64,000 nucleotides of DNA from an uncultured Anaerolinea sp. (GCA_964503625.1 CAZDAU010000002.1:32768-96767); one strand, 5' to 3'; positions 6,100 through 36,021 are shown, counted from the stretch's first letter. Program-made: numbers and translations. Notes: generated by a model not told the origin, from the letters alone.

Positions 6100-8441
<2,342 letters not shown>

Positions 8442-8442
<1 letters not shown>

Positions 8443-9803
8443 TGACTGACATTGCCATTCGGGTCGAGGATTTGGGGAAGTGGTACCGCTTGGGCGCTGG
8501 AGTGGGAGCTGGGCGCCCGCGGCAGGAGTATCGCACGCTGCGCGACTCGCTCGCTGTGGCGCTGTCCAACCCATTCCGTCGCAAACCCGGACGAAAAGAC
8601 TCCCCACATGCGGGCTCACCCCCGGAAGAACCGGACGATGAATTCATCTGGGCGCTGCGCAATGTCTCATTTGATGTGCGCAAAGGCCAGGTGATTGGTG
8701 TGATTGGGCGCAACGGCGCCGGCAAGAGCACATTGTTGAAAATTCTCTCCCGCGTCACTGAGCCAACCGAAGGATATGCCGAGGTGCATGGACGGGTCGG
8801 CTCGCTGCTCGAGGTGGGCACCGGCTTTCACCCAGAGCTGACAGGGCGCGAGAATATCTACCTGAACGGCGCTATCCTGGGCATGAAACGCACGGAGATC
8901 GACCGTAAATATGGTGAGATTGTGGACTTCTCGGGCGTGGAAAAATTCATCGACACACCGGTCAAGCGCTATTCCAGCGGCATGTATCTGCGGCTGGCAT
9001 TTGCCGTGGCAGCCCACCTGGAGCCAGAGATCCTGGTTGTAGACGAGGTCCTGGCGGTTGGCGATGCCGAGTTCCAGCGCAAGTGCCTGGGCAAGATGAG
9101 CGATGTGGCCCAGGAAGGGCGGACGGTGCTTTTTGTCAGCCATAACATGTCCGCTATCCTGCACCTGACGGAAGAGGCCATCGTGCTGGATAAGGGTCAT
9201 GTGGTGCACCGAGCCGCTACGGCTGAAGCGGTGGACTTTTATATGTCCTCCGGCCTGGCGCAGATTGGCGAGCGCATGTGGGCGTCTGATGAAGTGCCCG
9301 CTGAAGCCGCTCCTTTCCGCCCCCTGGCGATGCGCCTGAAGAACCGGGCGGGCCAGATTGTAGAGACAATTCGTTCTACCGAAGCCGTCTCAATCGAGGT
9401 GGAGTACGTCTTGGATGCGCCAATCTCTGGCCTGCGTGTGGGCCTCTACCTGCAAACTGCCCGCGGCGAGTATGTCTGGACCTCTTTTGACACGGACGAC
9501 CTGGAGCAGTTTGAGAATTATCCCGTGCGACAGGCGGGTCATTACATTAGCCGCTGCACCATCCCTGCCGATTTCCTCAATGAGGGTCGTTACATTCTGG
9601 GCGTTAACGCCAGCGCCTTCCGGGTGCGGCGTTATTTCCAGGAGGAACAAGCGTTATCTTTCACCGTGGATACCACCAATGCTCCTGGCTCGCAGTGGCC
9701 AGAAGCGCGCCTGGGTCCGGTTCGGCCGCGCCTGGCCTGGCAAATCCAGGCTGAGGAGCAGGCTGGGGAAGCCATTTGGGCCGGGAAAGGCGGAATATCA
9801 TGA
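8442..9803 (+). CDS. wzt: Polysaccharide ABC exporter ATPase with C-terminal carbohydrate-binding domain (Wzt type), copy 1
   Basis: The ATG at 8442 overlaps the wzm stop (TGATG). Walker A GRNGAGKST, signature YSSGMYLRLAFA, Walker B ILVVDE. An extra C-terminal beta-rich domain of about 190 aa (VSIEVEYVLDAPISGLRVGLYLQTARGEYVWTSFDTD...GRYILGVNA) is consistent with a Wzt_C glycan-cap-binding domain. The 8139 start in the ORF track is an upstream read-through of the same frame. Confidence 0.9.
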
Positions 9804-11455
9804 TCGGCAAGCGTACCGTGAAGAAAGTCCTGGGTAAATTGCCATTCACGGCAGAGATCTACTGGCGCTTCATCCAGCAGGGTAAAGCGCCGGCCAAGAA
9901 CTTTTCTTTGCGCAAGCTGGAGAGAAGCCTGCCAGACTGGTGCGCGCAGGCGCAGGCAGCTCGGACCAGCCGCCGGCCTGAGGAGCCCGCTCGCCGCATT
10001 TTGGTCTTTGCCACGCTGCGGTATTGGATTGAGCATGCCGCGCTGTTGAGCGTCTCTCTTGCCGGGCTTGGACACCAGGTAACGCTGGCTTACCTGCCCT
10101 ATGCCAACTGGCGCCGCCCGTACCAGCTATTTGACATTCGCCGCCAGAATGCCTATGCGCGCAATGTTTTACAGATGGCCCACCCGATCATTCAAACGGT
10201 CTCGCTATTGGATGTCAAGCCGGCTTCGGGGCGGGTATTCTCCGCAAATTTATTCCACAACCTGCAGCGGGTCTCGATCCGGGATACGCAGTATACCTTG
10301 CAGATCGAAGACGTCGATCTTAGCGGTGAGAGTGAATCAGCACGCCTGTACCACTTGCGTCTGGAGAGGAACCTGCAAGCAGCCGCAGCTCTCATGGGTT
10401 GGGTTCAATCCATTGACCCGGAACGACGGCCTGAACTGCTCATCACTCCCAACGGCAGTATTTTGGAGATGGGCGCGATCTACCAGGCTGTGCGTTCCCA
10501 GGGCATTCCTGCGGTGACGTATGAATTTGGCGAGCAGCGTGAGCGGATCTGGTTTGCTCAGAACAGCGAAGTGATGCTCCAGGAGACCGATGACCTTTGG
10601 GCGGCGCGCAAGGATCAGCCATTGAACGAGAGTCAGTGGGCCCAGATCAGGGCGCTTTATGCTTCGCGCCAGAACGGTCGTCTTTGGGAGAATTTCGCCC
10701 GCCTGTGGCAGGGGATCCCCAGCCAGGGCGGTGAGCAAGTTCGCCAGGCGCTGGGGTTGGATTCTCGGCCCATTGTGCTGCTGGCTGCGAACGTAATTGG
10801 CGATAGCCTGACCCTGGGACGACAGATCTTCTCTCGCAACATGACCAACTGGCTGGAGCGCAGCGTGCAGTTTTTTGCCCAAAAACCGGATGTCCAGTTG
10901 GTGGTGCGTATCCATCCTGGTGAGCGATATTTGAAAGGCCCCTCGGTCGCCGAGGTTGTGCGCAACGCGTTGCCGCAGATTCCGGCGCACATTCACCTGA
11001 TTGAAGCAGCCGATCCAATCAACACCTACGATCTGGTGCAAATTGCAGACCTGGGACTTGCCTACACCACCACCGTGGGCATGGAAATGCCCATGAGCGG
11101 CGTGCCGGTTGTGCTGGGCGGCAGGACGCATTACCGCGGCAAAGGTTTCACCTATGACCCACAAACCTGGGAAGATTACTTCCGCATGGTGGAGCTGGCT
11201 TTGTCCGAGCCAGGACAGCGCCGCTTGAGCCGCCCCCAGGTGGAGTTGGCCTGGAAATATGCTTATCACTTCTTCTTTGAGTATCCCACACCCTTCCCCT
11301 GGCATCTGCTGAAATTTTGGGAAGAACTGGAAAATTGGCCGGTGGCGCGTGTCCTGTCCAGCGAGGGCCAGGCCATCTTCGGCGACACCTTCCGTTGGTT
11401 AGCAGGTGCGCCGCGCACCTGGAACGCAGCGAGTTCGCCGGATGTTGAGAGATGA
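9800..11455 (+). CDS. Capsule-synthesis family (KpsC/KpsS-like) putative ulosonic-acid glycosyltransferase, paralog 1
   Basis: ATGA overlap with the wzt stop. Motif order resembles KpsS/KpsC: IVLLAANVIGDSLTL ... VQLVVRIHPGERY ... LGLAYTTTVGMEMPMSGVPVVLGG (compare E. coli KpsS LAVLQVYNDSQI ... LVIKHHPMDRG ... VVTINSTAGISALIHNKPL). Paralogous to 28092..29777. Confidence 0.6.
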   Translation: MIGKRTVKKVLGKLPFTAEIYWRFIQQGKAPAKNFSLRKLERSLPDWCAQAQAARTSRRPEEPARRILVFATLRYWIEHAALLSVSLAGLGHQVTLAYLPYANWRRPYQLFDIRRQNAYARNVLQMAHPIIQTVSLLDVKPASGRVFSANLFHNLQRVSIRDTQYTLQIEDVDLSGESESARLYHLRLERNLQAAAALMGWVQSIDPERRPELLITPNGSILEMGAIYQAVRSQGIPAVTYEFGEQRERIWFAQNSEVMLQETDDLWAARKDQPLNESQWAQIRALYASRQNGRLWENFARLWQGIPSQGGEQVRQALGLDSRPIVLLAANVIGDSLTLGRQIFSRNMTNWLERSVQFFAQKPDVQLVVRIHPGERYLKGPSVAEVVRNALPQIPAHIHLIEAADPINTYDLVQIADLGLAYTTTVGMEMPMSGVPVVLGGRTHYRGKGFTYDPQTWEDYFRMVELALSEPGQRRLSRPQVELAWKYAYHFFFEYPTPFPWHLLKFWEELENWPVARVLSSEGQAIFGDTFRWLAGAPRTWNAASSPDVER

Positions 11456-11456
11456 T

Positions 11457-12362
11457 ATGAGCGAAGTGAAGCAGGAAGTTCAACGCTTTTACGATCAGGT
11501 GGGCTGGAAGCTGATCAGTGAGGATGTGTACCAGAACGCGCGCTACGAAGATCTGCGCCCGGTCTCTCGCCGATATATCCACGACTGCCATATGCGGGTG
11601 GCGCGTCACCTGAGAGTCCAGGGGCGGTACTTGCTTGACGCCGGTTCTGGTCCTGTGCAATACCCCGAATATCTGGAGTATTCGCGCAACTATAATTTTC
11701 GTGTATGCGCCGATATTTCTATCACCGCCTTGAAAGAGGCTCGTAAGCGCGTCGGTGAGCAAGGCCTTTTTGTCGTTGCGGATATTGCCAGCCTGCCCTT
11801 CAAGCCAGGCGTGTTCGATGGTGTGGTCACTCTGCATACCATCCATCACCTGCCCGAGGCGGAGCACCTGCCTGCCTTTGTGGAACTGTTCCGCGTGCTT
11901 GCGCCTGGCTGTTCGGCTGTGGTGGTTAACGGTTGGGATCACTCAAGCCTGATGGCGTTGGCCGAGCCTTTCGTGCGGTTGGGCAATTCCTTGCGCTACT
12001 TGTTTGACCGACTGGGCAGGCAGGAAAAACAGCCGGCGGCCGGCGAGATGCAACAACGCCGCGATCCAGCCAAGAGCAAAAAAACTCACAAGATTGAAAC
12101 GGGCAAGGGCACCTTCACCGAAAAGCACGACGCTGCCTGGATCAAGACCCAGGTGGGCCAGCACATGCCTATTGAGATCCTGGTCTGGCGCAGTGTGACC
12201 GTGCGCTTCATGCGTGCGCTGATCCATCCTCGCCTGGGTGGTCGCGCTGCGCTGGGCTTGCTGTTCTGGCTGGAGGAGCGCTTTCCACATTTCTTTGGCG
12301 AGAAGGGCAAGTATCCACTGATTGTGATTCGCAAACCCGAGGAGGCAACCGTCGCTCCATGA
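11457..12362 (+). CDS. Class I SAM-dependent methyltransferase
   Basis: Motif I LLDAGSGPVQ, then FVVADIASLPFKPGVFDGVVTLHTIHHL. The start is ATG 11457 or possibly ATG 11442, immediately after the upstream stop. Confidence 0.85.
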   Translation: MSEVKQEVQRFYDQVGWKLISEDVYQNARYEDLRPVSRRYIHDCHMRVARHLRVQGRYLLDAGSGPVQYPEYLEYSRNYNFRVCADISITALKEARKRVGEQGLFVVADIASLPFKPGVFDGVVTLHTIHHLPEAEHLPAFVELFRVLAPGCSAVVVNGWDHSSLMALAEPFVRLGNSLRYLFDRLGRQEKQPAAGEMQQRRDPAKSKKTHKIETGKGTFTEKHDAAWIKTQVGQHMPIEILVWRSVTVRFMRALIHPRLGGRAALGLLFWLEERFPHFFGEKGKYPLIVIRKPEEATVAP

Positions 12363-13357
12363 ACTGGAATCAAAAAGTCGTGCTGGTCACTGGCGGCACG
12401 GGATCGTTTGGCAAGAAATTTATCGAAATCATGCTGCGGGAGTACCGGCCAGCTAAATTGATTGTCTTCAGCCGGGACGAGCTCAAGCAGCATGAGATGC
12501 GCACCAGCGGCTTCGACCACCCCAGCCTGCGCTATTTCATTGGGGATGTGCGCGATCTACAGCGCCTGCGCCGCGCCATGCATGGGGTAGATGTGGTGAT
12601 CCATGCTGCGGCGCTCAAACAGGTGCCTGCCTGTGAATATAACCCCATGGAAGCCATCAAGACCAATATCCTGGGCAGCGGCAACGTGATCGATGCCGCT
12701 CTGGATGCTGGAGTCGAGAAGGTCATGGCCCTCAGCACCGATAAAGCCGTCAGCCCGGTCAATCTTTATGGGACGACCAAGCTGGCTGCAGAGAAGCTCT
12801 TTGTGCAGAGCAACTCCTACGCTGCCGGGACAAATACTCGCTTTAGCTGCGTGCGCTACGGGAATGTGGTTGGCAGCCGCGGCAGCGTGGTGCCTCTTTT
12901 CATCAAGCAGCGCGCTTCTGGCAAGCTGACGGTCACGGACCTGCGGATGACTCGCTTCTGGCTCACGCTGGAACAGGGTGTGCGGTTTGTTATCCGTTGT
13001 ACCGAGCTGATGCAGGGCGGCGAGGTCTTCGTGCCCAAGATTCCATCAACCCGCATTGTAGATCTGGCCAACGTGATTGCGCCGGACGCCGAGCTGGAAG
13101 TCATCGGCATTCGCCCCGGAGAAAAACTTCACGAATTGTTGATAAACGAAGACGAAGCCCGTTCCACCCTCGAGCGTCCGGATATGTTTGTTGTCACGCC
13201 CACGGCTACTCTGTGGCAGCGTGATCTAAAGTATGAAGGCAGTCCCCTTCCGGAGGGGTTTCGCTACGCCAGCGATACCAATCCGGAATGGTTGAGTGTG
13301 GAGCAAATCCGCGAATTTGTAGCGCCATTTGAAGAGAGTAACCTGATTGAAGTTTAG
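12359..13357 (+). CDS. pseB: UDP-N-acetylglucosamine 4,6-dehydratase (PseB/CapD-short type)
   Basis: KVVLVTGGTGSFGKKFIEIML...LIVFSRDELKQHEMR...LRYFIGDVRD...IHAAALKQVPACEYNPMEAIKTNILGSGNVIDAA...STDKAVSPVNLYGTTKLAAEKLF. This is closest to the PseB pattern. ATGA overlap with the upstream gene. Confidence 0.8.
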   Translation: MNWNQKVVLVTGGTGSFGKKFIEIMLREYRPAKLIVFSRDELKQHEMRTSGFDHPSLRYFIGDVRDLQRLRRAMHGVDVVIHAAALKQVPACEYNPMEAIKTNILGSGNVIDAALDAGVEKVMALSTDKAVSPVNLYGTTKLAAEKLFVQSNSYAAGTNTRFSCVRYGNVVGSRGSVVPLFIKQRASGKLTVTDLRMTRFWLTLEQGVRFVIRCTELMQGGEVFVPKIPSTRIVDLANVIAPDAELEVIGIRPGEKLHELLINEDEARSTLERPDMFVVTPTATLWQRDLKYEGSPLPEGFRYASDTNPEWLSVEQIREFVAPFEESNLIEV

Positions 13358-13416
13358 CCTGCCCTGAAAGGCAAAAAGATCAGGGTTTATCCTTGCCCCA
13401 ATTTGGGAGGCAGTCC

Positions 13417-14358
13417 GTGCGGAGTCGCCGCATCTTGGTCACCGGAGCCAGCGGACTGCTCGGCCTGAACACGGCGTTGGAGGCAGCCAAAGAACACGAT
13501 GTAGTTGGGCAGGTGAACAGCCACCCGCTACGCACCGATGCCTTTGACACGGTTCAAGCCGACCTTCTGGCTCCTGGCGCGCTCGAGCGCCTGCTGGACC
13601 AGGCCCAACCCGAGTGGGTCATCCACTGCGCTGCGCTGGCAAACGTGGACGCCTGTGAGACCGATCCGTTTCGGGCGCGCCAATTGAATAGTGAAATCCC
13701 CCGCCAACTGGCTGAGCTTGTCGCCAGGGGCGGAGCGCGCCTGTTGCACGTTTCTACCGATGCCGTGTTTGATGGCCAGCGCGGCGACTATACCGAAACA
13801 GACGCTCCCAACCCCCTGGGAATCTATGCCCAAACCAAGCTGGATGGCGAGCAAGGCGTGTTGGCCGCCAACCCAAAGGCGATTGTCGCCCGGGTCAACC
13901 TGTTCGGTTGGAGCCTGTCTGGCAAACGCAGCCTGGCTGAGTTCTTCTTCAGCAAGCTCTCGGCTGGCGAATCTTGCATGGGTTTTACCGATGTCTTCTT
14001 CTGCCCGATGCTGGCCAATGACCTGGGACAGGTGTTTTTGAGGATGCTTGACGCCGGTTTGAGCGGTTTGTATCATGCTGTTGGCAGCGAATGCATCAGC
14101 AAATACCAGTTTGGCCTGCGCATCGCCCGCCAGTTTGGGTTGGATGAGCGCCTGATCGCTCCCAAATCGGTTCAGGAGGGCGGCCTGAAAGCTGCCCGCT
14201 CTCCGAACCTCACCCTGCGCACGGCGAAGCTCTCCCAGGCTCTGGGAGAGCCTCTCCCAGGCTTATCCACCGGGCTGGAGAAGTTTTACAGGCTCTATCA
14301 ACAGGGTTATCCTGGTTGGATCAGCCAATTGCGGGAAAGCGGTGCACACCAAAAGTGA
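13417..14358 (+). CDS. RmlD-fold NAD(P)-dependent sugar-nucleotide reductase
   Basis: RILVTGASGLLG...VIHCAALANVDACETDP...LLHVSTDAVFDGQRGDYTETDAPNPLGIYAQTKLDGE. A GTG start at 13417 lies 6 nt after a GGGAGG Shine-Dalgarno; the ORF-track TTG start is 13393. Confidence 0.8.
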   Translation: MRSRRILVTGASGLLGLNTALEAAKEHDVVGQVNSHPLRTDAFDTVQADLLAPGALERLLDQAQPEWVIHCAALANVDACETDPFRARQLNSEIPRQLAELVARGGARLLHVSTDAVFDGQRGDYTETDAPNPLGIYAQTKLDGEQGVLAANPKAIVARVNLFGWSLSGKRSLAEFFFSKLSAGESCMGFTDVFFCPMLANDLGQVFLRMLDAGLSGLYHAVGSECISKYQFGLRIARQFGLDERLIAPKSVQEGGLKAARSPNLTLRTAKLSQALGEPLPGLSTGLEKFYRLYQQGYPGWISQLRESGAHQK

Positions 14359-14433
14359 ATCCTTGGTGATGATTGATCTCTTTGCGAACTTTGTGTTTTA
14401 CTCTAAATCTCTGCCCGGAGGCCTAAAGCTAGT

Positions 14434-15501
14434 ATGGAAATCCAAATTGGTTCACGCCTGATCGGTCCCAATCACCCTACCTACTTCATCGCCGACATTG
14501 CTGCCAACCATGACGGCGACCTGGAGCGCGCCAGGATGCTCATCCGCCTGGCAAAAGAAGCCGGGGCCGATGCCGCTAAGTTCCAGAATTTCAGCGCCCC
14601 CAAGATTGTCTCTGACTACGGTTTTCGACAGATGGGGGGTCAGGTCTCCCACCAGGCATCCTGGAAGAAGTCGGTCTTTGAGGTGTACCAGGCCGCCTCA
14701 ATCCCCTTCGAGTGGACCCTGGACCTGGGAGAGGAGTGCCAGAAGGTTGGCATCGATTATTTTTCCTCCCCATATGACTTTGAAGCCATCGATTGGCTGG
14801 ATCCCTACGTCAGGATGTACAAAGCCGGCTCGGGCGAGATCGACTGGATCGAAGCCCTGGAGCGCATGGCAAGCAAAGGCAAGCCGTTCTTTGTTGCCAC
14901 TGGCGCCTCAACCATCGGAGAGGTGCAGCGCGCCGTGCATGCCATCCTGAAGCTCAACAAGCAGCTGGTGCTTATGCAATGCAACACCAACTACACCGCC
15001 AGCCCCGATAATTATGATCACCTGCACCTGAATGTGCTCAAGACCTATGCTGCCATGTTTCCCGATGTGATCTTGGGTCTATCGGATCACACCCACGCCT
15101 TGGCCCCTGTGCTGGGCGCTGTGACGCTGGGGGCGCGGGTGATTGAGCGCCACTTTACCGACAGCAACGACCGCGAAGGCCCAGATCACAAGTTTGCCAT
15201 GAACCCGGAGAATTGGGCGCGGATGGTTGAAGAGACCCGCCTGCTGGAGCGCGCCCTCGGCTCTGGCGATAAATTCATCACCCCCAACGAAACCGAAACC
15301 GCCGTGGTCCAGCGCCGTTGCCTGCGCGCCGCCCGAGATATCCGCGCTGGTGAGGTCTTCACCCGGGATATGATCGACGTGCTGCGCCCTGCCACCCCCG
15401 GGGCGATCAAGCCTTCAGAGATCGACGCCGTGATTGGGACGAGGGCCTTGCACGAGTTGCCTTTTGGCAAGGAATTGCGCTGGACAGATTTAGGGGCATG
15501 A
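14434..15501 (+). CDS. NeuB-family ulosonic (nonulosonic) acid synthase with C-terminal SAF domain
   Basis: IGPNHPTYFIADIAANHDGDLERARMLIRLAKEAGADAAKFQNF, then LGLSDHT and VIERHFT, then SAF-like CLRAARDIRAGEVFTRDMIDVLRP. The family is NeuB/PseI/LegI; the substrate cannot be assigned. Confidence 0.85.
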   Translation: MEIQIGSRLIGPNHPTYFIADIAANHDGDLERARMLIRLAKEAGADAAKFQNFSAPKIVSDYGFRQMGGQVSHQASWKKSVFEVYQAASIPFEWTLDLGEECQKVGIDYFSSPYDFEAIDWLDPYVRMYKAGSGEIDWIEALERMASKGKPFFVATGASTIGEVQRAVHAILKLNKQLVLMQCNTNYTASPDNYDHLHLNVLKTYAAMFPDVILGLSDHTHALAPVLGAVTLGARVIERHFTDSNDREGPDHKFAMNPENWARMVEETRLLERALGSGDKFITPNETETAVVQRRCLRAARDIRAGEVFTRDMIDVLRPATPGAIKPSEIDAVIGTRALHELPFGKELRWTDLGA

Positions 15502-15548
15502 TGCTGTGTTTTTGTTGATGCGGGCCGGGCGAAAAAACCAAACCGCTG

Positions 15549-16706
15549 ATGAAAATTTTATACTTCACCCGCGACTATACCAGCCATGATTACCGCTTCC
15601 TGGACAGGCTGGCAAAGTCGGGCCATGCAATCTACTACTTGCGGCTCGAGCGGCGTGGGCATGTTTTGGAAGATCGCCCGCTGCCGCCAGAGGTGGAAAT
15701 TGTGCATTGGATGGGGGGGCAGTCACCGGCTCGCTTATCCAACGGCCCGCGCCTTCTATTGGGTTTGAGGCGAGTCATCCGCAACCTGCAACCGGACATC
15801 CTGCATGCAGGGCCCTTGCAGCGCTCGGCTTTCCTGGCCGCGCTGACCGGCTTCCAGCCGCTGGTGAGCATGTCTTGGGGCTATGACTTGCTCCAAGACG
15901 CGCAGCGCAACGCCGCCTGGCGCTGGGCAACGCGTTACACCCTGCAGCACAGCGCGGCCCTGGTTGGCGACTGCGAAACCATCCGCCAGTTGGCGATCTC
16001 TTATGGTATGCCTGCTGATCGGATTGTCACCTTCCCCTGGGGGGTGGACCTGGAGCACTTTTCACCTGGGGATCGTTGGACCAGGCCAAACCAACCGCAG
16101 CCGGAGGCTATTGAAAAGCCCTTTACCCTGCTCTCCACCCGCAATTGGGAGCCAATCTATGGTGTGGAGACCATTGCCCGGGCCTTTGTGCAGGCCGCCC
16201 GCCAGCAGCCGGAGTTGCAGTTGGTCATGTTGGGCAACGGCTCGCAGGCAGGTTTGTTGCGCCAGGTCTTATCCCGAGAGGGTTTGCTGGATGGGCCAGG
16301 CGCAGGCAATTACCCTCGGGTATTGTTGCCCGGCCAGGTGACCTATGCCGACCTGCCGCGGTTTTATCGCCTGGCTGATTTATATGTTGCTGCAACCCAC
16401 AGCGACGGCACATCCATATCTCTATTGGAAGCGATGGCTTGCGGCTGCCCGGCGCTGGTCTCGGATATCCCAGGCAACCGTGAGTGGATTGCGCCAGGCG
16501 AAAATGGCTGGCTCACGCCGGTTGGGAATGTGGATGCCCTGGCGCAAGCGATGCTGCGGGCTGTGGAAACACGCCGCAACCTGCCCGAGATGGGGCGTGC
16601 TGCCCGGGCCCTGGCAGAGCAGCGCGCCGACTGGAACGCGAATTTCCCCCGGCTTTTTGAGGCTTATCGGCTTGCCCGCACAATTGGCATGAAACACAGG
16701 CGATGA
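15549..16706 (+). CDS. Glycosyltransferase, GT4/group-1 family
   Basis: N-terminus MKILYFTRDYTSHDYRF. C-domain ADLYVAATHSDGTSISLLEAMACGCPALVSDIPGNREWIAPGENGWL (E-x7-E region). Confidence 0.85.
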   Translation: MKILYFTRDYTSHDYRFLDRLAKSGHAIYYLRLERRGHVLEDRPLPPEVEIVHWMGGQSPARLSNGPRLLLGLRRVIRNLQPDILHAGPLQRSAFLAALTGFQPLVSMSWGYDLLQDAQRNAAWRWATRYTLQHSAALVGDCETIRQLAISYGMPADRIVTFPWGVDLEHFSPGDRWTRPNQPQPEAIEKPFTLLSTRNWEPIYGVETIARAFVQAARQQPELQLVMLGNGSQAGLLRQVLSREGLLDGPGAGNYPRVLLPGQVTYADLPRFYRLADLYVAATHSDGTSISLLEAMACGCPALVSDIPGNREWIAPGENGWLTPVGNVDALAQAMLRAVETRRNLPEMGRAARALAEQRADWNANFPRLFEAYRLARTIGMKHRR

Positions 16707-17521
16707 AATTGTCCCAGACTGTTGCTATCATACAAGCCCGAATGGGTTCCTCCCGCCTGCCTGGCAAAGTGCTGCTCGATATTGCCGGGCAACCGATGCT
16801 GGGCCGCGTGGTTGAGCGGACGCGCCAGGCAAAGACCATCGATCAGGTGATTGTTGCCACAACCGTCGAGCCAGGCGACGACCCGGTGGCTGACTATTGT
16901 GACGCCCACGGATACCCGGTCTATCGCGGCAGCCTGCACGACGTGCTCGATCGTTACTACCAGGCGGCCCGTTGGTCCGCAGCAGAAACTGTGGTGCGCA
17001 TCACCGCCGATTGTCCTCTAATCGATCCTGAGGTTGTCGACCGGACTGTCCAGGCTTTTCATGGGGCAGATCTGCCGCATTTGCAATGCCTGAACCCTGG
17101 TTTGCCGGGCGGCTACGCGTTTTGCGCCAACCGCTTGCCGCCGCCCTGGGGGCGCACCTACCCCATTGGCCTGGATACAGAGGTTTGCGCATTCACCGAC
17201 CTGGAGACTATTTGGAAAGAAGCCCAGGAGCCGCATCAACGCGAGCATGTGATGCCCTTTTTTTATGATCACCAGGAACGCTTTAAGATCCTGCTGGTGC
17301 ATCACGAAACGGATTACGGCGCTTTGCGGCTGACCGTCGATACTGCTCAAGATTTAGAGCTGGTTCGTCAGGTCTTTGCCCGCTTTCCTGGGCGCGACGA
17401 CTTCTCCTGGCTGGATGTTGTGGCTTTGCTTGAGCGCGAGCCTGCTCTGCTGGCCATCAATGCCCAGGTGCAGCACAAACATTATCGCCAGGTGGATGAG
17501 CGGCGCGCTCACCTCGGATAA
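16703..17521 (+). CDS. SpsF-type cytidylyltransferase (CMP-Kdo-synthetase homolog)
   Basis: VAIIQARMGSSRLPGKVLLDIAGQPMLGRVVERTRQAKTIDQVIVATT...YRGSLHDVLDRYYQAA...VVRITADCPLIDP. ATGA overlap with the upstream gene. Confidence 0.8.
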   Translation: MKLSQTVAIIQARMGSSRLPGKVLLDIAGQPMLGRVVERTRQAKTIDQVIVATTVEPGDDPVADYCDAHGYPVYRGSLHDVLDRYYQAARWSAAETVVRITADCPLIDPEVVDRTVQAFHGADLPHLQCLNPGLPGGYAFCANRLPPPWGRTYPIGLDTEVCAFTDLETIWKEAQEPHQREHVMPFFYDHQERFKILLVHHETDYGALRLTVDTAQDLELVRQVFARFPGRDDFSWLDVVALLEREPALLAINAQVQHKHYRQVDERRAHLG

Positions 17522-17526: not shown

Positions 17527-18438
17527 ATGCCTGGAAAAACACCTTTTCTGGCTCTGTTTTCTGCTCCCAAACCTTTCACCAACCCCCATATCGCCATCAT
17601 CCAGCGCAACGCAGTTCAGTCCTGGCTGCACCTGGGCCCGGACGTGGAAGCGATGCTGGTTGGCGAAGAGGCCGGGATGGCCGAAGTTGCCCGGGAGTAT
17701 GGTATCCGCTGGTTGGCGGATGTGCAACGCACGGAATCTGGGACGCCATTGGTCAGCTCGATCTTTGCCCTGGCGCGCCAGGCGAGCGATTGTCCATTTT
17801 TGGGTTATGTCAATGGCGATATTCTGGTCTTGCCGGATATTTTGGAAGCCACCCGCCAGATTTCCGCTCAGGTCAGCGGGCCGTTCCTGCTGATCGGCCA
17901 GCGCTGGGATCTCGATGTGATCGAGCTGCTCGATTTTTCACCAGGCTGGGAGGCGCGACTGCGCGCCGATGTCAGGGCGCGCGGCCGGTTGCACCGCCCG
18001 GCTGGCAGTGATTACTTTGTCTTTCCCCGCTCGGCATTTACCGAGATGCCCGACTTCGCTATTGGGCGCGCCGGCTGGGACAACTGGATGATCTACCATG
18101 CCCGCCGGCAGAGCTGGCCGGTGATCGATGGCACGCCTTCCGTAATGATTGTGCACCAGAGCCACGACTACAGTCACCTGCCCGGCGGTAAGCCGCATTA
18201 TAACCACCAGGAAAGCCAGCAAAACATGGCTAAGGCGGGCGGACAGGCGAATATGTACATGGTGCTGGATTCGGATCGTCAATTGAAAGGCGGCCGGGTG
18301 CAGCGCCCCCCATTGACCACCTTGCGGGCTTTGCGCACAGTTGAGCGCTGGCTGATGCCCAGCGACGGCAGTCTGCGCGGGATGCGCGGCGCCCTCACCC
18401 GGCAATTTCGCCGTATGCGCAGAAGGTTATACGGATAG
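17527..18438 (+). CDS. Hypothetical protein, possibly a GT-A-fold glycosyltransferase
   Basis: 303-aa ORF in an operonic position. FLGYVNGDILVLPD (DxD-like) and GSDYFVFPRSAF...GRAGWDNWMIYHA suggest a nucleotide-sugar transferase fold. Family not recognised. Confidence 0.45.
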   Translation: MPGKTPFLALFSAPKPFTNPHIAIIQRNAVQSWLHLGPDVEAMLVGEEAGMAEVAREYGIRWLADVQRTESGTPLVSSIFALARQASDCPFLGYVNGDILVLPDILEATRQISAQVSGPFLLIGQRWDLDVIELLDFSPGWEARLRADVRARGRLHRPAGSDYFVFPRSAFTEMPDFAIGRAGWDNWMIYHARRQSWPVIDGTPSVMIVHQSHDYSHLPGGKPHYNHQESQQNMAKAGGQANMYMVLDSDRQLKGGRVQRPPLTTLRALRTVERWLMPSDGSLRGMRGALTRQFRRMRRRLYG

Positions 18439-19453: not shown

Positions 19454-20476
19454 ATGGCTGCCGAGCTGCGCGATTCCCCGGTCTTCATCTGCGGTCATCC
19501 CAAGGCGGGCACCAGCCTGCTGCGAGCGATCTTTGATTCCCATCCGCAGCTGGTAGTTTATCCGGAGGAGACCGTGTTCTTCCGCCGATTCCTTCCCCGT
19601 TCTAAAGATCTGGATTTGCAGGGGCTGCTGGCGCTGGCGGAGGAGACTTTGATCCACATTTTCCGCTGGCGTCGAGATAAGCCGGATGCCAGCCAGTCCG
19701 GTTTTCCTGATCGGGACTATTCGACGATCTCGTATGATCAGGTCAACCGGGCGATGCGCCGGTTGGCAGGCGAGCGCTGCCGGCACGCTGGCGATATTCT
19801 TTCGGCGGCGGTGCTGGCTTATGGGCAGGTGAGCGATTTGGCGACCCCATCCACTCGCGCCTGGGTGGAAAAATCGCCCTACAACGAATATTATGCTGAG
19901 CAGATTTTTGCCTGGTGGCCCGGGGCGCTGTGTATTCATATCCTGCGCGACCCGCGGGATAACTACGTCTCTTACCGCCGCAAGCACCCTGACTGGCGGG
20001 CGGAATTTTTTGCTGCCAACTGGCGGCGCTCCACCCGCGTCGGTCAGGTGAACCAGCAGCGCTTTGGTTCGCAGCGTTATCACATGCTTCGCTACGAAGA
20101 CCTGGTGCAATCGCCTGAAGTGACGCTGAGCAAGTTGGCCGCCTTTCTGGGAATTGAATGGGATCCATCTTTGGCCGACCCAACCCGTGCTGGCGAGCAA
20201 TGGGCTGGTAATTCGATGTTTGCCGACCAGTTCCGAGGCATCAGCGCAGCGCCGGTGGCGCGCTGGCATGAGAAGCTTTCCCTGGAAGATGCGGCGGTTA
20301 TTGAGCAAATGGCGGGCCAACAGATGGAAATCTATGGTTACGCACGTGAAATTGCCGGCGCTGCCGCGCTGGTTGCCCGCGGGCGCGCCCTTGCCTGGCC
20401 ATTGCGCCGCCGGCTTTCCCGCTTGTTGCAGCCGGCGCCCACGCTGGACCACTCAAACGATCGCACGGATGAGTGA
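19454..20476 (+). CDS. Sulfotransferase (ST1)
   Basis: 5'-phosphosulfate-binding loop ICGHPKAGTSLL and 3'-phosphate-binding region HILRDPRDNYVSYRRK. Confidence 0.85.
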   Translation: MAAELRDSPVFICGHPKAGTSLLRAIFDSHPQLVVYPEETVFFRRFLPRSKDLDLQGLLALAEETLIHIFRWRRDKPDASQSGFPDRDYSTISYDQVNRAMRRLAGERCRHAGDILSAAVLAYGQVSDLATPSTRAWVEKSPYNEYYAEQIFAWWPGALCIHILRDPRDNYVSYRRKHPDWRAEFFAANWRRSTRVGQVNQQRFGSQRYHMLRYEDLVQSPEVTLSKLAAFLGIEWDPSLADPTRAGEQWAGNSMFADQFRGISAAPVARWHEKLSLEDAAVIEQMAGQQMEIYGYAREIAGAAALVARGRALAWPLRRRLSRLLQPAPTLDHSNDRTDE

Positions 20477-20488
20477 TCATCACCGTGC

Positions 20489-21556
20489 TTGAGCAGCGCG
20501 AATCCGGATCAAGAGACTGGTATGCCCTATTCCCTTAGTCAACGTATTGCCCTGGCTTTGCGCATCCTGCGCCGGGGTGATGCTCCGCCATCTGCCCGTC
20601 GGGAGGTGCCGCCCATCACCCTGGATGAGATTTCCGAAGTCAGGACATTCTTCCCGCTGGACAAGTTCTTTGTTTTCGGCCACGCTCGCTCGGGGACGAC
20701 GATGCTGACGCGCCTGGTCCGTCTGCACCCAGAAGTGCATTGCGATTACCAGGCCCATTTCTTCACCCGTTCTCCGCTGCTTGAGAGCCTGGTGGCGGAT
20801 GCCGAAGTGGGCGAATGGCTCTCGCGCGGCAGCAACCGCTGGAACCGTGGCAAAGATCTGTCGCCGGTTGTTTTGCGCGTTGCTGCCGATTACATCCTGG
20901 AGCGCGAGGCGCGCCGGGAAGGCAAGCGCATTGTCGGTGATAAGAGCCCCAACAGTCTGCTGGATGGCGAAGCAGTGCGCCTGATGCACAAGGTATATCC
21001 AGATGCCCGACTGATCTATATCGTGCGCGACGGGCGGGATGCCGTGGTTTCGCACCGTTTTCAGTCTTTTATTGAATTTCCGGAGCGGCTTTCCAAGGAA
21101 GACCAGCAGTTGCGCGCCCGGTTTGCTCGCGCCCCGCAGCCTTTCTTATCTGGGGAGCAGTCGATATTTACCCAGGCGGCCATCACCCGCGCCGCCCAGG
21201 GCTGGGTCCGCAACGTCACTCAGACCGACCAGGAGGGGCGGGAGCTGTTCGGCGAACGCTACCTTTCCCTGCGTTACGAAGACCTGCTCCACCAGCCCTG
21301 GGAGCAGATGCGCCGGGTATGGGAATTCTTGGGCGCTTCTCCGGCGGACGAAGATCTGCACCAGGCGTTGCTGGCTGAAATGACCCGCAATCCCGACGCC
21401 GATTGGCAGCAGCAAAAAGCCAAAGATATTGCCCAATCGCTGCAGAAAGGCAAGCGGGGTTCCTGGCGCGAGCTGTTCACCCCTCGCGACCGGCAAATCT
21501 TTCGCCAGTTTGCTGATGAAACGCTGCTTGCCTGGGGATACGAGGCCACGCCTTGA
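20489..21556 (+). CDS. Sulfotransferase (ST2)
   Basis: VFGHARSGTTML, YIVRDGRDAVVSHRF and GSWRELFTPRDRQIF. TTG start at 20489 from the ORF track; the first ATG is at 20522. Confidence 0.85.
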   Translation: MSSANPDQETGMPYSLSQRIALALRILRRGDAPPSARREVPPITLDEISEVRTFFPLDKFFVFGHARSGTTMLTRLVRLHPEVHCDYQAHFFTRSPLLESLVADAEVGEWLSRGSNRWNRGKDLSPVVLRVAADYILEREARREGKRIVGDKSPNSLLDGEAVRLMHKVYPDARLIYIVRDGRDAVVSHRFQSFIEFPERLSKEDQQLRARFARAPQPFLSGEQSIFTQAAITRAAQGWVRNVTQTDQEGRELFGERYLSLRYEDLLHQPWEQMRRVWEFLGASPADEDLHQALLAEMTRNPDADWQQQKAKDIAQSLQKGKRGSWRELFTPRDRQIFRQFADETLLAWGYEATP

Positions 21557-22539
21557 AGATCCTTATCGCAGGCTTTGGCTCAATTGGCCGCCGCCATTTC
21601 CATAACCTGCTGGCGCTGGGCGAGCGGGACATTCTGTTTTATCGCAGCGGGCGCAGCACGCTCCCCGATGATGAATTGAGAGACTATCCGCTGGAAACTG
21701 ATCTGCAGGCTGCGTTAGCGCGCCGCCCACAAGCAGTGATTGTTGCCAACCCGACTGCGTTGCACCTACAGGTGGCCATTCCGGCTGCAGCCGCGGGATG
21801 TAGCCTGCTGCTTGAGAAACCGGTCTCCCACACGTTGGATGGGCTCACCGAGCTTCAAGAAGCTGTGCAGAAAAGCGGGGCAAAGGTCCTGGTGGGTTAT
21901 CAATTTCGCTTTCATCCGGGCCTGCGCCAGGTGAAACAGCTGTTTGATGGCGGGATGATCGGCCGCATGGTCTCGGTTCGCGCCCATTGGGGCGAATACC
22001 TTCCTGGCTGGCACCCCTGGGAGGACTACCGCCAGGGTTACAGTGCCAGGCAAGACCTGGGGGGCGGCGTGGTTTTGACCCTGTGCCATCCGCTGGATTA
22101 CCTGCGCTGGTTGTTTGGGGAGATTACCGCTCTCTGGGCTTTTACTGGTCAATTGAGCGGTTTGGAGCTGAGCGTTGAAGACACTGCTGAGATTGGACTG
22201 CGCTTTGCCGGTGGCGCCCTGGGAAGCCTGCACCTGGATTTCTGCCAGCGCCCACCTTCCCACTACCTGGAAGCAATTGGCACCCAGGGCACGATCCGCT
22301 GGGATAACTCGGATGGCGCTGTTCATCTCTACCGCGCTGGTCCAGATCAGTGGATGAATTTTCCTGCCCCGGAAGGGTTTGAGCGCAACAGCATGTTTCT
22401 TGACCAGATGCGCCATTTTCTGGCGGTTGTTCGTGGCGAAGCTGAGCCGTCTTGCACCCTGCACGACGGTCTTCAAGCGCTGCGACTGGTCCTGGCAGCC
22501 GGCCTATCGCAATCGCAAGGACGGTGCATTGATCTGTGA
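21553..22539 (+). CDS. Gfo/Idh/MocA-family NAD(P)-dependent oxidoreductase
   Basis: MKILIAGFGSIGRRHFHNLL...LLEKPVSHTL. TTGA overlap with the upstream stop. Confidence 0.8.
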   Translation: MKILIAGFGSIGRRHFHNLLALGERDILFYRSGRSTLPDDELRDYPLETDLQAALARRPQAVIVANPTALHLQVAIPAAAAGCSLLLEKPVSHTLDGLTELQEAVQKSGAKVLVGYQFRFHPGLRQVKQLFDGGMIGRMVSVRAHWGEYLPGWHPWEDYRQGYSARQDLGGGVVLTLCHPLDYLRWLFGEITALWAFTGQLSGLELSVEDTAEIGLRFAGGALGSLHLDFCQRPPSHYLEAIGTQGTIRWDNSDGAVHLYRAGPDQWMNFPAPEGFERNSMFLDQMRHFLAVVRGEAEPSCTLHDGLQALRLVLAAGLSQSQGRCIDL

Positions 22540-22544
22540 AAAAC

Positions 22545-22553
22545 TGCTATAAT
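22545..22553 (+). promoter_or_regulatory. Extended -10 promoter element TGCTATAAT upstream of sat-cysC
   Basis: Exact TGnTATAAT in the 69-nt spacer between 22539 and 22608. Confidence 0.5.
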
Positions 22554-22592
22554 TGCCGCTTGTGCTATCAAGCGAACTATTGAACTATTTGA

Positions 22593-24389
<1,797 letters not shown>

Positions 24390-24412
24390 GAATCTTTGGT
24401 TTGGTCTATTTC

Positions 24413-24452
24413 CCCAGGTCTGGCGGTTGCCCTGGTTGCTGCCAGGCCTGGG
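24413..24452 (+). terminator. Strong GC-rich hairpin downstream of sat-cysC (terminator-like, no U-tract)
   Basis: CCCAGGTCTGGC (24413-24424) pairs with GCCAGGCCTGGG (24441-24452). That is 12 bp including one G-U pair, with a 16-nt loop, starting 24 nt after the stop codon. Confidence 0.35.
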
Positions 24453-24491
24453 TCACTGCCAGAGACCGCCCTTCTGGTGGATAATTTCATC

Positions 24492-25364
24492 ATGGCCCCC
24501 AACTTGTCTCAAACGAATCCTGCCTCCACCCGCTCGGCGCTTGATCTTTTCAGCTTGTCTGGCCGGGCGGCGATCGTCACTGGCGGCGCAGGGCTGCTGG
24601 GTGCGCAATTCTGTCGCACCCTGGCCCAGGCCGGTGCTAAGGTTGCGGTTGCCGACATCGATGGACCTGCCGGGGACGCTCTGGCCCAGGACCTGATGAA
24701 CCAGGGCCATCAGGCTATTGCGGTGCGCGCCGACGTCACCGATCCAGCGTCTGTCCGGCAGATGGTGGCTGCGACGGTCAATGCGTTTGGCCGGTTAGAC
24801 ATCCTGGTCAACAGCGCCGCCCTGGACCCAAAGTTCGACCCCAAGCAAGTCGCCAACGAGTTCACGTATTCTGAATCGGGCGCGTTCGAAGACTTTCCGC
24901 TGGCTGCCTGGGAGCAGGCGCTGGCGGTCAACCTGACCGGCGCTTTTCTGTGTTGCCAGGCCGGCGTGGAGCCCATGCTCAGGCAGGGCGGCGGCGTGAT
25001 CATCAACCTTTCGTCCATTTATGGCCTGGCAGGCCCCGACCAGCGCATCTATCAGCGGGCGGGTCAACCACCGCGCTACAAGCCGGTCTATTACTCTGTA
25101 ACCAAGGCGGGAATCTTGGGGTTGACCCGTTACCTGGCGACCTATTACGCCGGGCGAAACATTCGCGTCAACACCCTCACCCCTGGCGGGGTGTTCAATG
25201 GGCACGAAGATACCTTCGTGCAGGCATACTCTGCCCGGGCTGTGCTGGGGCGGATGGCTGATAGAAATGAACTGAACGGCGCGCTCCTCTTCCTGGCTTC
25301 CGATGCTTCCGCTTACATGACCGGGGCCAATCTGGTGGTGGATGGTGGCTGGACGGCCTGGTAG
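24492..25364 (+). CDS. Short-chain dehydrogenase/reductase (SDR)
   Basis: AAIVTGGAGLLG, NSAA, SSIYG and YSVTKAG (YxxxK). The start is moved to ATG 24492; the ORF-track start 24396 lies in the hairpin-containing spacer. Confidence 0.85.
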   Translation: MAPNLSQTNPASTRSALDLFSLSGRAAIVTGGAGLLGAQFCRTLAQAGAKVAVADIDGPAGDALAQDLMNQGHQAIAVRADVTDPASVRQMVAATVNAFGRLDILVNSAALDPKFDPKQVANEFTYSESGAFEDFPLAAWEQALAVNLTGAFLCCQAGVEPMLRQGGGVIINLSSIYGLAGPDQRIYQRAGQPPRYKPVYYSVTKAGILGLTRYLATYYAGRNIRVNTLTPGGVFNGHEDTFVQAYSARAVLGRMADRNELNGALLFLASDASAYMTGANLVVDGGWTAW

Positions 25365-26102
25365 ATGACCGAGACGCTTGCCTTGATCCCGGCCCGCGGC
25401 GGCTCGAAAAGCATCCCGCGCAAGAATATCCGCCCGTTTGCCGGGCATCCCTTGATTGCCTACAGCATTGCCGCCGGCCTGGCTGCGGAAATGGTCACCC
25501 GGGTGGTTGTTTCCACCGATGATGAGGAGATTGCGGCAGTTGCTCGGCGGTACGGCGCAGAGACGCCTTTCTTGCGCCCGGCTGCGCTATCCCAGGACCA
25601 CACGGCCGACTTGCCGGTCTTCCAGCATGCCCTGGAATGGTTGGGCGAGAACGAGGGCTACCAGCCCGAGATTGTTGTTCAGTTGCGCCCAACTTCGCCT
25701 TTCCGGCGGGTGAGCCATATTGATCAGGCAATCTATCGCTTACTCGAGCGTCCGGAGGCCGACTCGGTGCGCACAGTATGCGTGCCCTTTCAGAATCCTT
25801 TCAAGATGTGGCGCATCGATTCGAGTGGGTTCATGCAGCCATTGCTTGGGGCAGAATACCCTGAGCCATATAATATGCCTCGCCAGCTTTTGCCCCAGGT
25901 GTATTGGCAGACCGGTTATGTGGATGTCGCCTGGACGGATACAATTTTGCAGAAGGGTTCAATGACTGGCGATCGCATCCTGCCCCTGGTCATCGATTCC
26001 AGCGAATGGATTGACATCGACTCACCCGACGATTGGCGCCGGGCCGAGCGCTTGCTGGAAAGCGGCGAAATAACGCTGGAGGACCTGGGTTTCCAATTCT
26101 AA
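25365..26102 (+). CDS. neuA: Acylneuraminate (nonulosonate) cytidylyltransferase, NeuA/CMP-sugar synthetase family
   Basis: ALIPARGGSKSIPRKNIRPFAGHPLIAYSIAAG...VVVSTDDEEIAAVARRYGAETPFLRPAALSQDHTADLPVFQHAL...QLRPTSPFR. Confidence 0.88.
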   Translation: MTETLALIPARGGSKSIPRKNIRPFAGHPLIAYSIAAGLAAEMVTRVVVSTDDEEIAAVARRYGAETPFLRPAALSQDHTADLPVFQHALEWLGENEGYQPEIVVQLRPTSPFRRVSHIDQAIYRLLERPEADSVRTVCVPFQNPFKMWRIDSSGFMQPLLGAEYPEPYNMPRQLLPQVYWQTGYVDVAWTDTILQKGSMTGDRILPLVIDSSEWIDIDSPDDWRRAERLLESGEITLEDLGFQF

Positions 26103-26146
26103 GAACGCGGCCTTTGGCTGGCGGATAGACCCGAGGAGATTAATGA

Positions 26147-32214: not shown

Positions 32215-32253
32215 CATCACAGTAATGCAATTCAGATTTCGGAGCGTCAAACC

Positions 32254-32748: not shown

Positions 32749-32815
32749 GAAATCAGGATTTATCCTCTCATGGGTAATGGTTAAGCATCCCTGATTCCCA
32801 GAATCCTGAATTTGC

Positions 32816-36017: not shown

Positions 36018-36021
36018 AACA

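Follow-up and report, generated by a model that had tools for sequence, protein, structure and literature searches.

Nonulosonic acids shape the recognition of bacterial surfaces by hosts, phages and lectins, and genome-based predictions of surface chemistry make use of their pathways. The pathways to pseudaminic acid (Pse) and legionaminic acid (Leg) need C4 transamination of a 4-keto intermediate, and to our knowledge all established bacterial routes to 9-deoxy nonulosonates include this step. Here we report a putative nonulosonate cassette with a reductase gene in a member of the Anaerolineae, filamentous bacteria that abound in anaerobic digesters, granular sludge and sediments. The analysed DNA, referred to as the window, is a stretch of 64,000 nucleotides from an uncultured Anaerolinea sp. 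(GCA_964503625.1 CAZDAU010000002.1:32768-96767), in which the cassette occupies positions 12359-17521.

The cassette is filled by five co-oriented, closely spaced genes on the plus strand, which encode a PseB-type dehydratase, an RmlD-fold reductase, a NeuB-family synthase, a member of glycosyltransferase family 4 (GT4) and a cytidylyltransferase. Overlaps of 4 nt join the stop of a preceding methyltransferase gene to the start of the dehydratase gene and the stop of the GT4 gene to the start of the cytidylyltransferase gene. Families were assigned with Pfam profiles, equivalogs were called with NCBIfam models against their own cut-offs, and solved relatives were compared by bit score.

The first gene (12359-13357) encodes an inverting UDP-N-acetylglucosamine (UDP-GlcNAc) 4,6-dehydratase of the PseB type (Polysacc_synt_2, 336 bits). 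The protein passes the PseB equivalog TIGR03589 (493.7 bits, cut-off 407.75) and fails the FnlA model (244.8 bits, cut-off 730) and the LegB model (71.7 bits, cut-off 475). Its closest solved relative is FlaA1/PseB of Helicobacter pylori (2GN4, 363 bits), followed by CapE (237 bits) and PglF (138 bits), and the catalytic motif STDK...Y-x3-K carries Tyr where CapE and FnlA carry Met. The FnlA score, the ranking of solved relatives and the Tyr rule out a dehydratase of the FnlA/CapE type. Orthologues, 77 in number, are 66-94% identical, with 47% of positions invariant.

The second gene encodes an NAD(P)H-dependent short-chain dehydrogenase/reductase (SDR) of the RmlD fold (RmlD_sub_bind, 192 bits), in an open reading frame (ORF) at 13393-14358 whose most likely start is the GTG at 13417, behind a GGGAGG Shine-Dalgarno sequence. 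This reductase misses the rmlD equivalog TIGR01214 (181.8 bits, cut-off 224.05). The window has its own true rmlCBAD operon (54007-57512), so the reductase beside PseB is not a rhamnose enzyme; a true RmlD is excluded by the equivalog score, the separate operon and an identity of 31% between the two proteins. The GxxGxxG motif and the triad T110/Y133/K137 are invariant in 82 orthologues, and the protein belongs to a broad subfamily of its own, in which the best 150 clusters at 50% identity all score above 200 bits and solved RmlDs reach 50-110 bits. Fold, intact triad and position suggest that the product of 13417-14358 is a C4 ketoreductase acting on the PseB product.

The third gene (14434-15501) encodes a phosphoenolpyruvate (PEP)-condensing synthase of the NeuB family (NeuB domain, 227 bits, and SAF domain), which forms a distinct clade and is the proposed nonulosonate synthase. 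It lies below the cut-offs of both the NeuB equivalog (259.8 bits against 399.65) and the PseI equivalog (238.9 bits against 340.25) and is roughly equidistant from SpsE, NmNeuB and PseI, with SpsE as the closest solved relative (165 bits). Across Chloroflexota, Acidobacteriota and two distant loci described below (L088 and L089; locus names are ours), its homologues are 60-94% identical. The loop S72-H73-Q74...W77 is invariant, as is the motif YKAGSGE, in which Gly replaces the Phe of YKIASFE in PseI. The active-site markers are ambiguous: Gly at the position proposed to read C2 is as in NeuB, at position 184 a Thr is close to the Ser of PseI, and the Trp-containing loop is like that of PseI. 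The fifth gene (16703-17521) encodes an SpsF-like CTP_transf_3 cytidylyltransferase (PF02348, 116 bits), a candidate CMP-nonulosonate synthetase that matches neither the PseF equivalog (31.5 bits, cut-off 205.7) nor the KdsB equivalog; it is 45-82% identical to 61 orthologues and 48% identical to its orthologue in L088, which is the cytidylyltransferase half of a CTP_transf_3::Aminotran_3 fusion.

The fourth gene (15549-16706) encodes a protein of the GT4 fold (Glycos_transf_1 and Glyco_transf_4) with atypical motifs, which belongs to a distinct subfamily. The R-x5-K-G motif reads R198-x5-Y204-G, so that the Lys equivalent to K202 of PimA is an invariant Tyr; the EGFG motif reads S-D286-G-S/T-S, with an invariant Asp in place of the first Glu of E-x7-E (in alignment with PimA and GtfA); and in place of the Gly-rich N-terminal loop there is an invariant H13-D14-x-R16-F. 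The three changes are common to the orthologues from Chloroflexota, Acidobacteriota and the loci L079, L089 and L093, and are lacking in the ordinary GT4s that adjoin reductase homologues in L087, L088 and L091.

The usual partner genes of such pathways are missing from the window. A Pfam scan of 56 plus-strand ORFs and 11 long minus-strand ORFs of the window yielded no DegT_DnrJ_EryC1 (PF01041), Aminotran_3, Epimerase_2 or Glyco_tran_28 domain. Six-frame tblastn of the 64 kb with five probes, namely a verified DegT (304 bits to PF01041), a second DegT, a PseC-like fragment, a class-III aminotransferase and an Epimerase_2 protein, returned noise only (E >= 0.4). Neither PseH nor PseG was detected in the window by matches of the TIGR03585/TIGR03590 type, and its sole small GNAT (32254-32748) matches other GNAT families and not PseH. 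For a hydrolysing UDP-GlcNAc 2-epimerase of the NeuC type, both the domain search and the tblastn probe were negative in the window, and no NeuC or other source of N-acetylmannosamine (ManNAc) was found in the window or in 90 related loci. The minus-strand ORFs (237-519 aa) were considered as hidden aminotransferase or hydrolase genes; none has a Pfam match, and they are therefore regarded as shadow ORFs. The initial annotation of this DNA had listed the five genes in the order given above and had seen no aminotransferase of the DegT/PseC/LegC type, no PseG or NeuC and no PseH; profile searches and tblastn agree with it on both points.

The cassette is embedded in a locus that is conserved throughout the Anaerolineae. 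Metagenomes contain many close homologues of the reductase (69-90% identity), and the best 80 genome loci by reductase match, taken from one genome per species with reductase identities of 50-85%, all belong to Anaerolineae (Chloroflexota), including the cultured Anaerolinea thermolimosa IMO-1 (locus L052). When the window proteins were mapped onto these 80 and six metagenome loci (86 Chloroflexota loci in total), nearly all showed the series MarR-type regulator, Fcl-like epimerase, Wzm, Wzt, Kps559, methyltransferase, PseB, reductase, NeuB, GT4, a variable insert, cytidylyltransferase, an ORF of the 17527-18438 type and a glycosyltransferase of family 2 (GT2). Clustering of the ORFs in the gaps of related loci gave methyltransferases, membrane proteins and restriction-modification genes, together with a pair of putative acyl-exchange genes discussed below. 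More than 80 Anaerolineae species and a metagenome-assembled genome (MAG) of the Acidobacteriota (GCA_012103255.1) keep the order PseB-reductase-NeuB and have no aminotransferase gene near it; closed MAGs that bear the cassette include OY969938.1 and OW818655.1. Among the 86 loci and L090, L092 and L093, a DegT gene occurs only in L065, inside an insertion. The whole locus is a lineage-wide feature, found in essentially every Anaerolineae genome retrieved, and the five-gene arrangement, which recurs in about 85 independent genomes and a second phylum, is far beyond chance. As a control, 28 loci with generic RmlD homologues had no NeuB, GT4 or cytidylyltransferase neighbour.

In the Acidobacteriota MAG (locus L092), the genes for dehydratase, reductase, synthase, GT4 and cytidylyltransferase are contiguous (identities of 67, 44, 61, 36 and 53%, respectively), the polysaccharide surroundings share no other gene with the window, and no aminotransferase lies within 10 kb of the cassette. 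The five genes are one conserved, portable cassette that moves as a block. A metagenome scan seeded with the Acidobacteriota reductase recovered the same contig and otherwise generic RmlDs only, the latter serving as a negative control, and a search of a plasmid collection with the reductase gave only generic RmlD homologues (at most 36% identity) with no useful context.

More distant relatives preserve parts of the arrangement. The entire Anaerolineae-type locus recurs in L093, with a reductase identity of 45%. L079 contains reductase-NeuB-GT4, and L089 the same three genes behind a divergently transcribed cytidylyltransferase gene. L088 consists of an aldo-keto reductase, a fusion of a cytidylyltransferase with a class-III aminotransferase, the reductase and NeuB; L087 of a different GT4, PseB, the reductase and a truncated PseC-like segment; and L091 of PseB, the reductase and yet another GT4, with no NeuB within 20 kb. 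In such rearranged or distant loci the reductase adjoins either PseB (L087, L091) or NeuB (L079, L088, L089), and the NeuB clade is still 60-66% identical where the identity of the reductase falls to about 40%. This double linkage of the reductase, to PseB and to this NeuB clade, is the pattern predicted by a linear pathway from PseB through the reductase to NeuB. The atypical GT4 accompanies the cassette into the unrelated Acidobacteriota locus and the reductase-NeuB pair in L079 and L089.

Several features of the distant loci deserve mention in their own right. The insertion in L065 (10948-13888) consists of a GFO-family oxidoreductase, a second cytidylyltransferase and a DegT aminotransferase, and the same trio stands by the cassette genes in the unrelated L089 (5028-8015). 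One reading is that these enzymes could oxidise and transaminate a sugar hydroxyl, possibly at the level of the CMP-sugar, and so turn a 7-hydroxy into a 7-amino nonulosonate. The class-III aminotransferase part of the fusion directly upstream of reductase-NeuB in L088 is GSA-like, and the aldo-keto reductase gene precedes it (listed coordinates: L088 7908-10004; L087 7141-8079). A 546-aa database 'fusion' in L089 (P0161, 10001-10730) is a gene-calling artefact, whose residues 1-243 shadow an SpsF-like cytidylyltransferase gene on the opposite strand.

From gene content and synteny, we propose that the cassette makes CMP-activated 5-acetamido-3,5,9-trideoxy-non-2-ulosonic acid, a 7-hydroxy-9-deoxy sugar of the Pse/fusaminic type with OH in place of NHAc at C7, and we consider the case for this product evenly balanced. 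PseB, assigned at the equivalog level, would convert UDP-GlcNAc into UDP-2-acetamido-2,6-dideoxy-beta-L-arabino-hex-4-ulose (UDP-4-keto-6-deoxy-L-AltNAc). The RmlD-fold SDR would then reduce C4 with NAD(P)H, giving UDP-6-deoxy-L-AltNAc or its C4 epimer. The sugar would be freed from UDP, possibly by the atypical GT4 with water as the acceptor, as in PseG. The NeuB-clade synthase would join the free 6-deoxy-HexNAc to PEP to form the 5-acetamido-3,5,9-trideoxy-nonulosonate, and the SpsF-like CTP_transf_3 enzyme would convert this into the CMP-sugar. Afterwards, Kps559, a protein similar to KpsS and BFO_1060, would add the nonulosonate to a glycan exported by Wzm/Wzt, and the methyltransferase may modify it. 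Exchanging PseC and PseH for one ketoreductase shortens the six-step Pse route to five steps, matching the five genes. The family assignments are what the profiles establish, and each substrate named here is a prediction from sequence.

The idea that reduction replaces transamination upstream of NeuB was already put forward in the initial annotation. Gene content, the separate rml operon and synteny speak for it, and a number of observations weigh against it. Reductase homologues (38-43% identity) adjoin a PseC-like gene in L087, the cytidylyltransferase::class-III aminotransferase fusion in L088 and a DegT gene in L089; because relatives in three distant lineages stand beside aminotransferases, the reductase family is not intrinsically or simply an alternative to transamination. 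No PseB orthologue was found within 10 kb of the L088 and L089 clusters, and the GT4s that adjoin PseB-reductase in L087 and L091 are not orthologous to that of the cassette. The locus also contains a conserved second candidate 4-keto reductase, the Fcl-like protein (6605-7555). The Phe of PseI, which is Gly in ManNAc-using NeuB, has been proposed to read the configuration at C2 (PMC7371886), so the Gly in the cassette synthase means that this marker does not support a substrate with the Pse-type C2 configuration. The sugar-release step is a further difficulty, since searches of the 64 kb with Pfam and NCBIfam models detected no recognisable UDP-sugar hydrolase. The atypical GT4 is the sole conserved candidate; the argument for this role is drawn wholly from its conservation, portability and altered motifs, and it is equally possible that the protein is a transferase for the 6-deoxy-HexNAc or for the nonulosonate. 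In PseG, a His in the equivalent first loop activates water.

The conserved ORF at 17527-18438 was also considered as a hydrolase. It encodes a protein of 303 aa without a Pfam or NCBIfam match, always lies 5' of the GT2 gene in loci of the Anaerolineae type, and resembles a GT-A glycosyltransferase by sequence (e.g. GYVNGD). The lack of a family match, the GT-A-like appearance and its absence from the Acidobacteriota cassette make a hydrolase unlikely, and because of that absence the ORF is assigned to glycan assembly and not to the portable pathway.

The main rival, which we regard as rather unlikely, divides the cassette into two interleaved functions: PseB and the reductase would supply a UDP-6-deoxy-L-HexNAc, e.g. 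UDP-6-deoxy-L-AltNAc, to the GT4, and NeuB and the cytidylyltransferase would produce an unrelated ulosonate similar to N-acetylneuraminic acid (Neu5Ac), Kdn or Kdo from an aldose of central metabolism. A dehydratase, an RmlD-like reductase and a GT4 form the classical layout of loci for UDP-2-acetamido-2,6-dideoxy-L-hexoses, as in the L-FucNAc/L-QuiNAc-type loci with WbvB/WbvR or with Qnl/Fnl and WbuB. L091 (PseB-reductase-GT4, without NeuB in 20 kb) and L087 (GT4-PseB-reductase) would fit such a division, as would the lack of a hydrolase in the window to join both halves, the Gly that the synthase shares with ManNAc-using NeuB, and the fact that 6-deoxy-L-AltNAc is itself a glycan residue in Fusobacterium nucleatum. 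However, the cassette GT4 is not orthologous to those of L087 and L091 and lacks the canonical Lys and Glu of GT4 transferases, and the reductase still adjoins NeuB in L079, L088 and L089, where PseB is absent nearby. Moreover, neither the window nor the 90 related loci offer a NeuC or another ManNAc source for the second half, and the five genes are transferred en bloc into an unrelated locus.

We consider it distinctly unlikely that the cassette yields an ordinary nonulosonate of the 5,7-diamino type (Pse-like or an epimer) and that the aminotransferase, N-acetyltransferase and hydrolase for it are encoded elsewhere. The RmlD-fold enzyme would then act at another step, e.g. in epimerising the hexose or the CMP-nonulosonate by oxidation and reduction, a role proposed for the Acinetobacter enzymes Aci/Ela; for acinetaminic acid, SDRs have been proposed to modify the CMP-sugar (PMC5595891). 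The positions of reductase homologues adjacent or fused to a PseC-like gene (P0215 in L087), beside the cytidylyltransferase::Aminotran_3 fusion of L088 and opposite the DegT operon of L089 are consistent with this. Yet the PseC-like portion of P0215, which breaks off at a strand switch, may be an artefact of assembly or decay, and the DegTs of L065 and L089, each paired with a GFO oxidoreductase and a second cytidylyltransferase, look like a separate module. It would also require that PseC, PseH and PseG all lie outside a compact, translationally coupled operon in more than 80 species and in the Acidobacteriota copy.

In GT4 enzymes such as PimA, the Lys of the R-x5-K-G motif binds the second (beta) phosphate of nucleoside diphosphate (NDP) donors. 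Its replacement by Tyr removes this contact and would suit a CMP donor, and the Acidobacteriota locus has the cassette without a Kps559 homologue, but it is quite improbable that the atypical GT4 is the nonulosonate transferase of a cassette for synthesis, activation and transfer (with the hydrolase encoded elsewhere), since the Anaerolineae loci already have a BFO_1060/KpsS-like candidate with an HP motif, the hydrolase step is still unexplained, and we know of no GT4-family enzyme that uses CMP-ulosonates.

The genes upstream of the cassette, all on the plus strand, point to the assembly and export of a glycan. Kps559 (9776-11455), a KpsS/KpsC- and BFO_1060-like protein with an HP motif, directly follows Wzt in nearly all related loci. 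Its own matches to Capsule_synth (E = 4.6e-4) and BFO_1060 (E = 1e-4) are weak. It is a paralogue (E = 9e-21) of Kps581 (28032-29777), which matches both families more strongly (BFO_1060, 41.6 bits), and the alignment contains the motifs RIHPGE/RAHPDE. Members of the BFO_1060 family have been shown genetically to be the Pse/Leg transferases of Tannerella forsythia (PMC5420450); because its paralogue matches this family, Kps559 is a likely candidate for the CMP-nonulosonate transferase. The gene for a SAM-dependent methyltransferase (11406-12362; Methyltransf_11, 57 bits), which is translationally coupled to PseB, is kept between Kps559 and PseB in 64 loci; the enzyme possibly methylates the nonulosonate or the terminus of the chain.

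Wzm, an ABC-2 permease, and Wzt, an ATPase with a Wzt_C glycan-binding domain, form a glycan exporter (7552-9803; ABC2_membrane, ABC_tran and Wzt_C) that is kept directly upstream of Kps559 in related loci; the Wzt ORF is listed from 8139, with its true start probably near 8442. Because Wzt carries a glycan-binding C-terminal domain, one may speculate that the nonulosonate, perhaps methylated, is a non-reducing terminal cap that licenses export. At the head of the locus, after the MarR-type regulator, the epimerase/reductase similar to GDP-fucose synthase (Fcl) at 6605-7555 (NF047922, 294.7 bits, below the cut-off of 500) is conserved with 62-84% identity. The window contains no GDP-mannose dehydratase (Gmd), and possible substrates of the Fcl-like enzyme are the PseB product and a dTDP-4-keto sugar. 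Farther upstream, a membrane protein of the LPG_synthase_TM family (3055-4077) is conserved in Anaerolineae (L001, L052), and another one lies by the reductase-NeuB pair of the unrelated L088; this protein may bear on lipid anchoring of the glycan.

Downstream on the plus strand, the window encodes an AAC(3)-like N-acetyltransferase (32816-33580; Antibiotic_NAT, 128 bits) and a Cj1295-like protein of the aminopeptidase fold (33825-35132; 435 aa, DUF4910 and DUF2172). In 13 related loci this pair lies within the cassette itself, between the GT4 and cytidylyltransferase genes, and in L079 it follows the GT4 gene. In Campylobacter jejuni, Cj1295 is needed for a pseudaminic acid in which a 5-N-(di-O-methylglyceroyl) group replaces the N5 acetyl (PMC3068675). 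The embedding of both genes in the cassette argues that the latter makes a nonulosonate related to Pse and acylated at N5, and both proteins are likely to be accessory enzymes of N5-acyl exchange. They are part of a block (30922-35132) that also encodes a homologue of SerRS-like amino acid-[carrier protein] ligases (177 bits) and the GNAT mentioned above, with comparable blocks in L079 (14063-16355) and L090 (14610-16324), the latter with a formyltransferase instead of the AAC(3)-like protein as the partner of DUF4910. The composition of the block suggests removal and replacement of the N5 acyl group on a nonulosonate.

Other parts of the window point to further acidic sugars. A second ulosonic acid module (21553-29777) comprises a GFO/IDH/MocA oxidoreductase, a bifunctional ATP-sulfurylase/APS kinase, a PRK09186-like SDR, a PseF-like cytidylyltransferase (170 bits, cut-off 206), a 650-aa fusion of NeuB and SAF (NeuB model, 355 bits, cut-off 400) with an AP_endonuc_2 xylose-isomerase-like TIM barrel, and a BFO_1060/Capsule_synth-like transferase; like the cassette, the module lacks both an aminotransferase and NeuC. 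At 38579-41983, a third CTP_transf_3 cytidylyltransferase is followed by a D-2-hydroxyacid dehydrogenase, an SDR and an MptE-like protein with faint similarity to PseD/Maf and to the Kdo transferase WaaZ. By these assignments the window would have, for CMP-linked acidic sugars, three activating enzymes and as many candidate transferases. It also contains at least five sulfotransferase genes and a gene for the synthesis of 3'-phosphoadenosine-5'-phosphosulfate (PAPS) (19454-21556, 35154-37524, 44658-45614 and 22608-24389), and the polymer is therefore probably heavily sulfated. Sulfotransferase genes are conserved downstream of the cassette in related loci and occur in the Acidobacteriota locus as well. 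A second Wzm/Wzt pair (46427-48053), in which Wzt has no glycan-binding domain at its C-terminus, precedes the gene for a 969-aa protein with an alpha-L-rhamnosidase six-hairpin domain (48057-50966), two 490-aa ORFs without a family match and rmlCBAD; the region 46427-57512 looks like a locus for a second, rhamnose-containing glycan exported by an ABC transporter.

The many sulfotransferase genes and the PAPS synthase indicate that the locus probably encodes the synthesis of a major envelope or matrix glycan of Anaerolineae that is acidic and sulfated. If the proposed pathway is correct, the conserved reducing cassette would represent a fourth type of nonulosonate pathway and provide candidate genes for a trideoxy sugar known so far only from F. 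nucleatum, and genome-based predictors that expect PseC or LegC would need correction. If the atypical GT4 is a hydrolase, it would be a new case of a glycosyltransferase fold recruited for sugar release. The full picture, in which a portable, aminotransferase-free route present in at least two phyla is the first genetic basis of the trideoxy class, the atypical GT4 is an independently arisen UDP-6-deoxy-HexNAc hydrolase analogous to PseG, and the sugar is an export-licensing cap or core component of a sulfated Anaerolineae envelope glycan, is put forward as a tentative proposal.

Among known systems, RmlD of dTDP-L-rhamnose synthesis shares its fold and the T/Y/K triad with the cassette reductase, which differs in scoring below the equivalog cut-off and in having rml neighbours elsewhere in the window. 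The CMP-Neu5Ac pathway (NeuC, NeuB, NeuA) is set apart by NeuC, which the window lacks, and by a synthase that, unlike that of the cassette, is a NeuB equivalog. The CMP-Leg pathway relies on a retaining dehydratase of the LegB/PglF type, LegC and LegG, none of which is found in the window. With the legionaminic acid genes of Bacillus subtilis (SpsM, C, D, G, E, F) the cassette shares an SpsF-like cytidylyltransferase and UDP-linked precursors, and SpsE is the solved protein nearest to its synthase; the aminotransferase SpsC, the acetyltransferase SpsD and SpsG are missing from the window. The pathways to UDP-2-acetamido-2,6-dideoxy-L-hexoses, such as WbvB/WbvR/WbvD of Vibrio cholerae O37 and FnlABC/QnlABC, likewise start with a Polysacc_synt_2 UDP-GlcNAc 4,6-dehydratase followed by an RmlD-like C4 reductase, often with an adjoining GT4. 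In contrast to the UDP-L-FucNAc, L-QuiNAc and L-RhaNAc pathways, however, the cassette has a dehydratase of the PseB and not of the FnlA/CapE type and no 2-epimerase, and its NeuB and cytidylyltransferase genes are interleaved and move together with the others.

The predicted sugar itself has a precedent. The O-antigen of F. nucleatum 25586 is reported to contain 6-deoxy-L-AltNAc and 5-acetimidoylamino-3,5,9-trideoxy-gluco-nonulosonic acid in one polymer (Vinogradov 2017, as cited in PMC7371886), and the latter sugar is described as the single reported trideoxy case (PMC7371886). It belongs to the predicted class, with a 9-deoxy and a 7-hydroxy position and one amino group at C5, and co-occurs with its presumed precursor, 6-deoxy-L-AltNAc. 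It is known as a structure only and bears a 5-acetimidoyl group, whereas the window lacks an amidotransferase of the PseA type. The 9-deoxy, 7-hydroxy product envisaged in the initial annotation is partly supported by the content of the cassette, and the class is chemically known already, which counts against it as an unseen class; the genes linked to it would be new. Literature searches returned no described genes for a trideoxy nonulosonate and no nonulosonate pathway containing a reductase.

The closest parallel is the CMP-pseudaminic acid pathway of Helicobacter and Campylobacter (PseB, PseC, PseH, PseG, PseI, PseF). The cassette lacks PseC, PseH and PseG and has an RmlD-fold reductase in the place of PseC and PseH; its synthase and cytidylyltransferase fail the PseI and PseF equivalogs, an atypical GT4 is an integral part, and the predicted product keeps the OH at C7. 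In both systems a bona fide PseB comes first, a NeuB-family enzyme would carry out the condensation with PEP and a CTP_transf_3 enzyme the final activation, and Cj1295-like and AAC(3)-like accessory genes, as in the flagellar glycosylation locus of Campylobacter, are also associated with the cassette. By analogy, the cassette would work most like the Pse pathway, with the amination and acetylation steps replaced.

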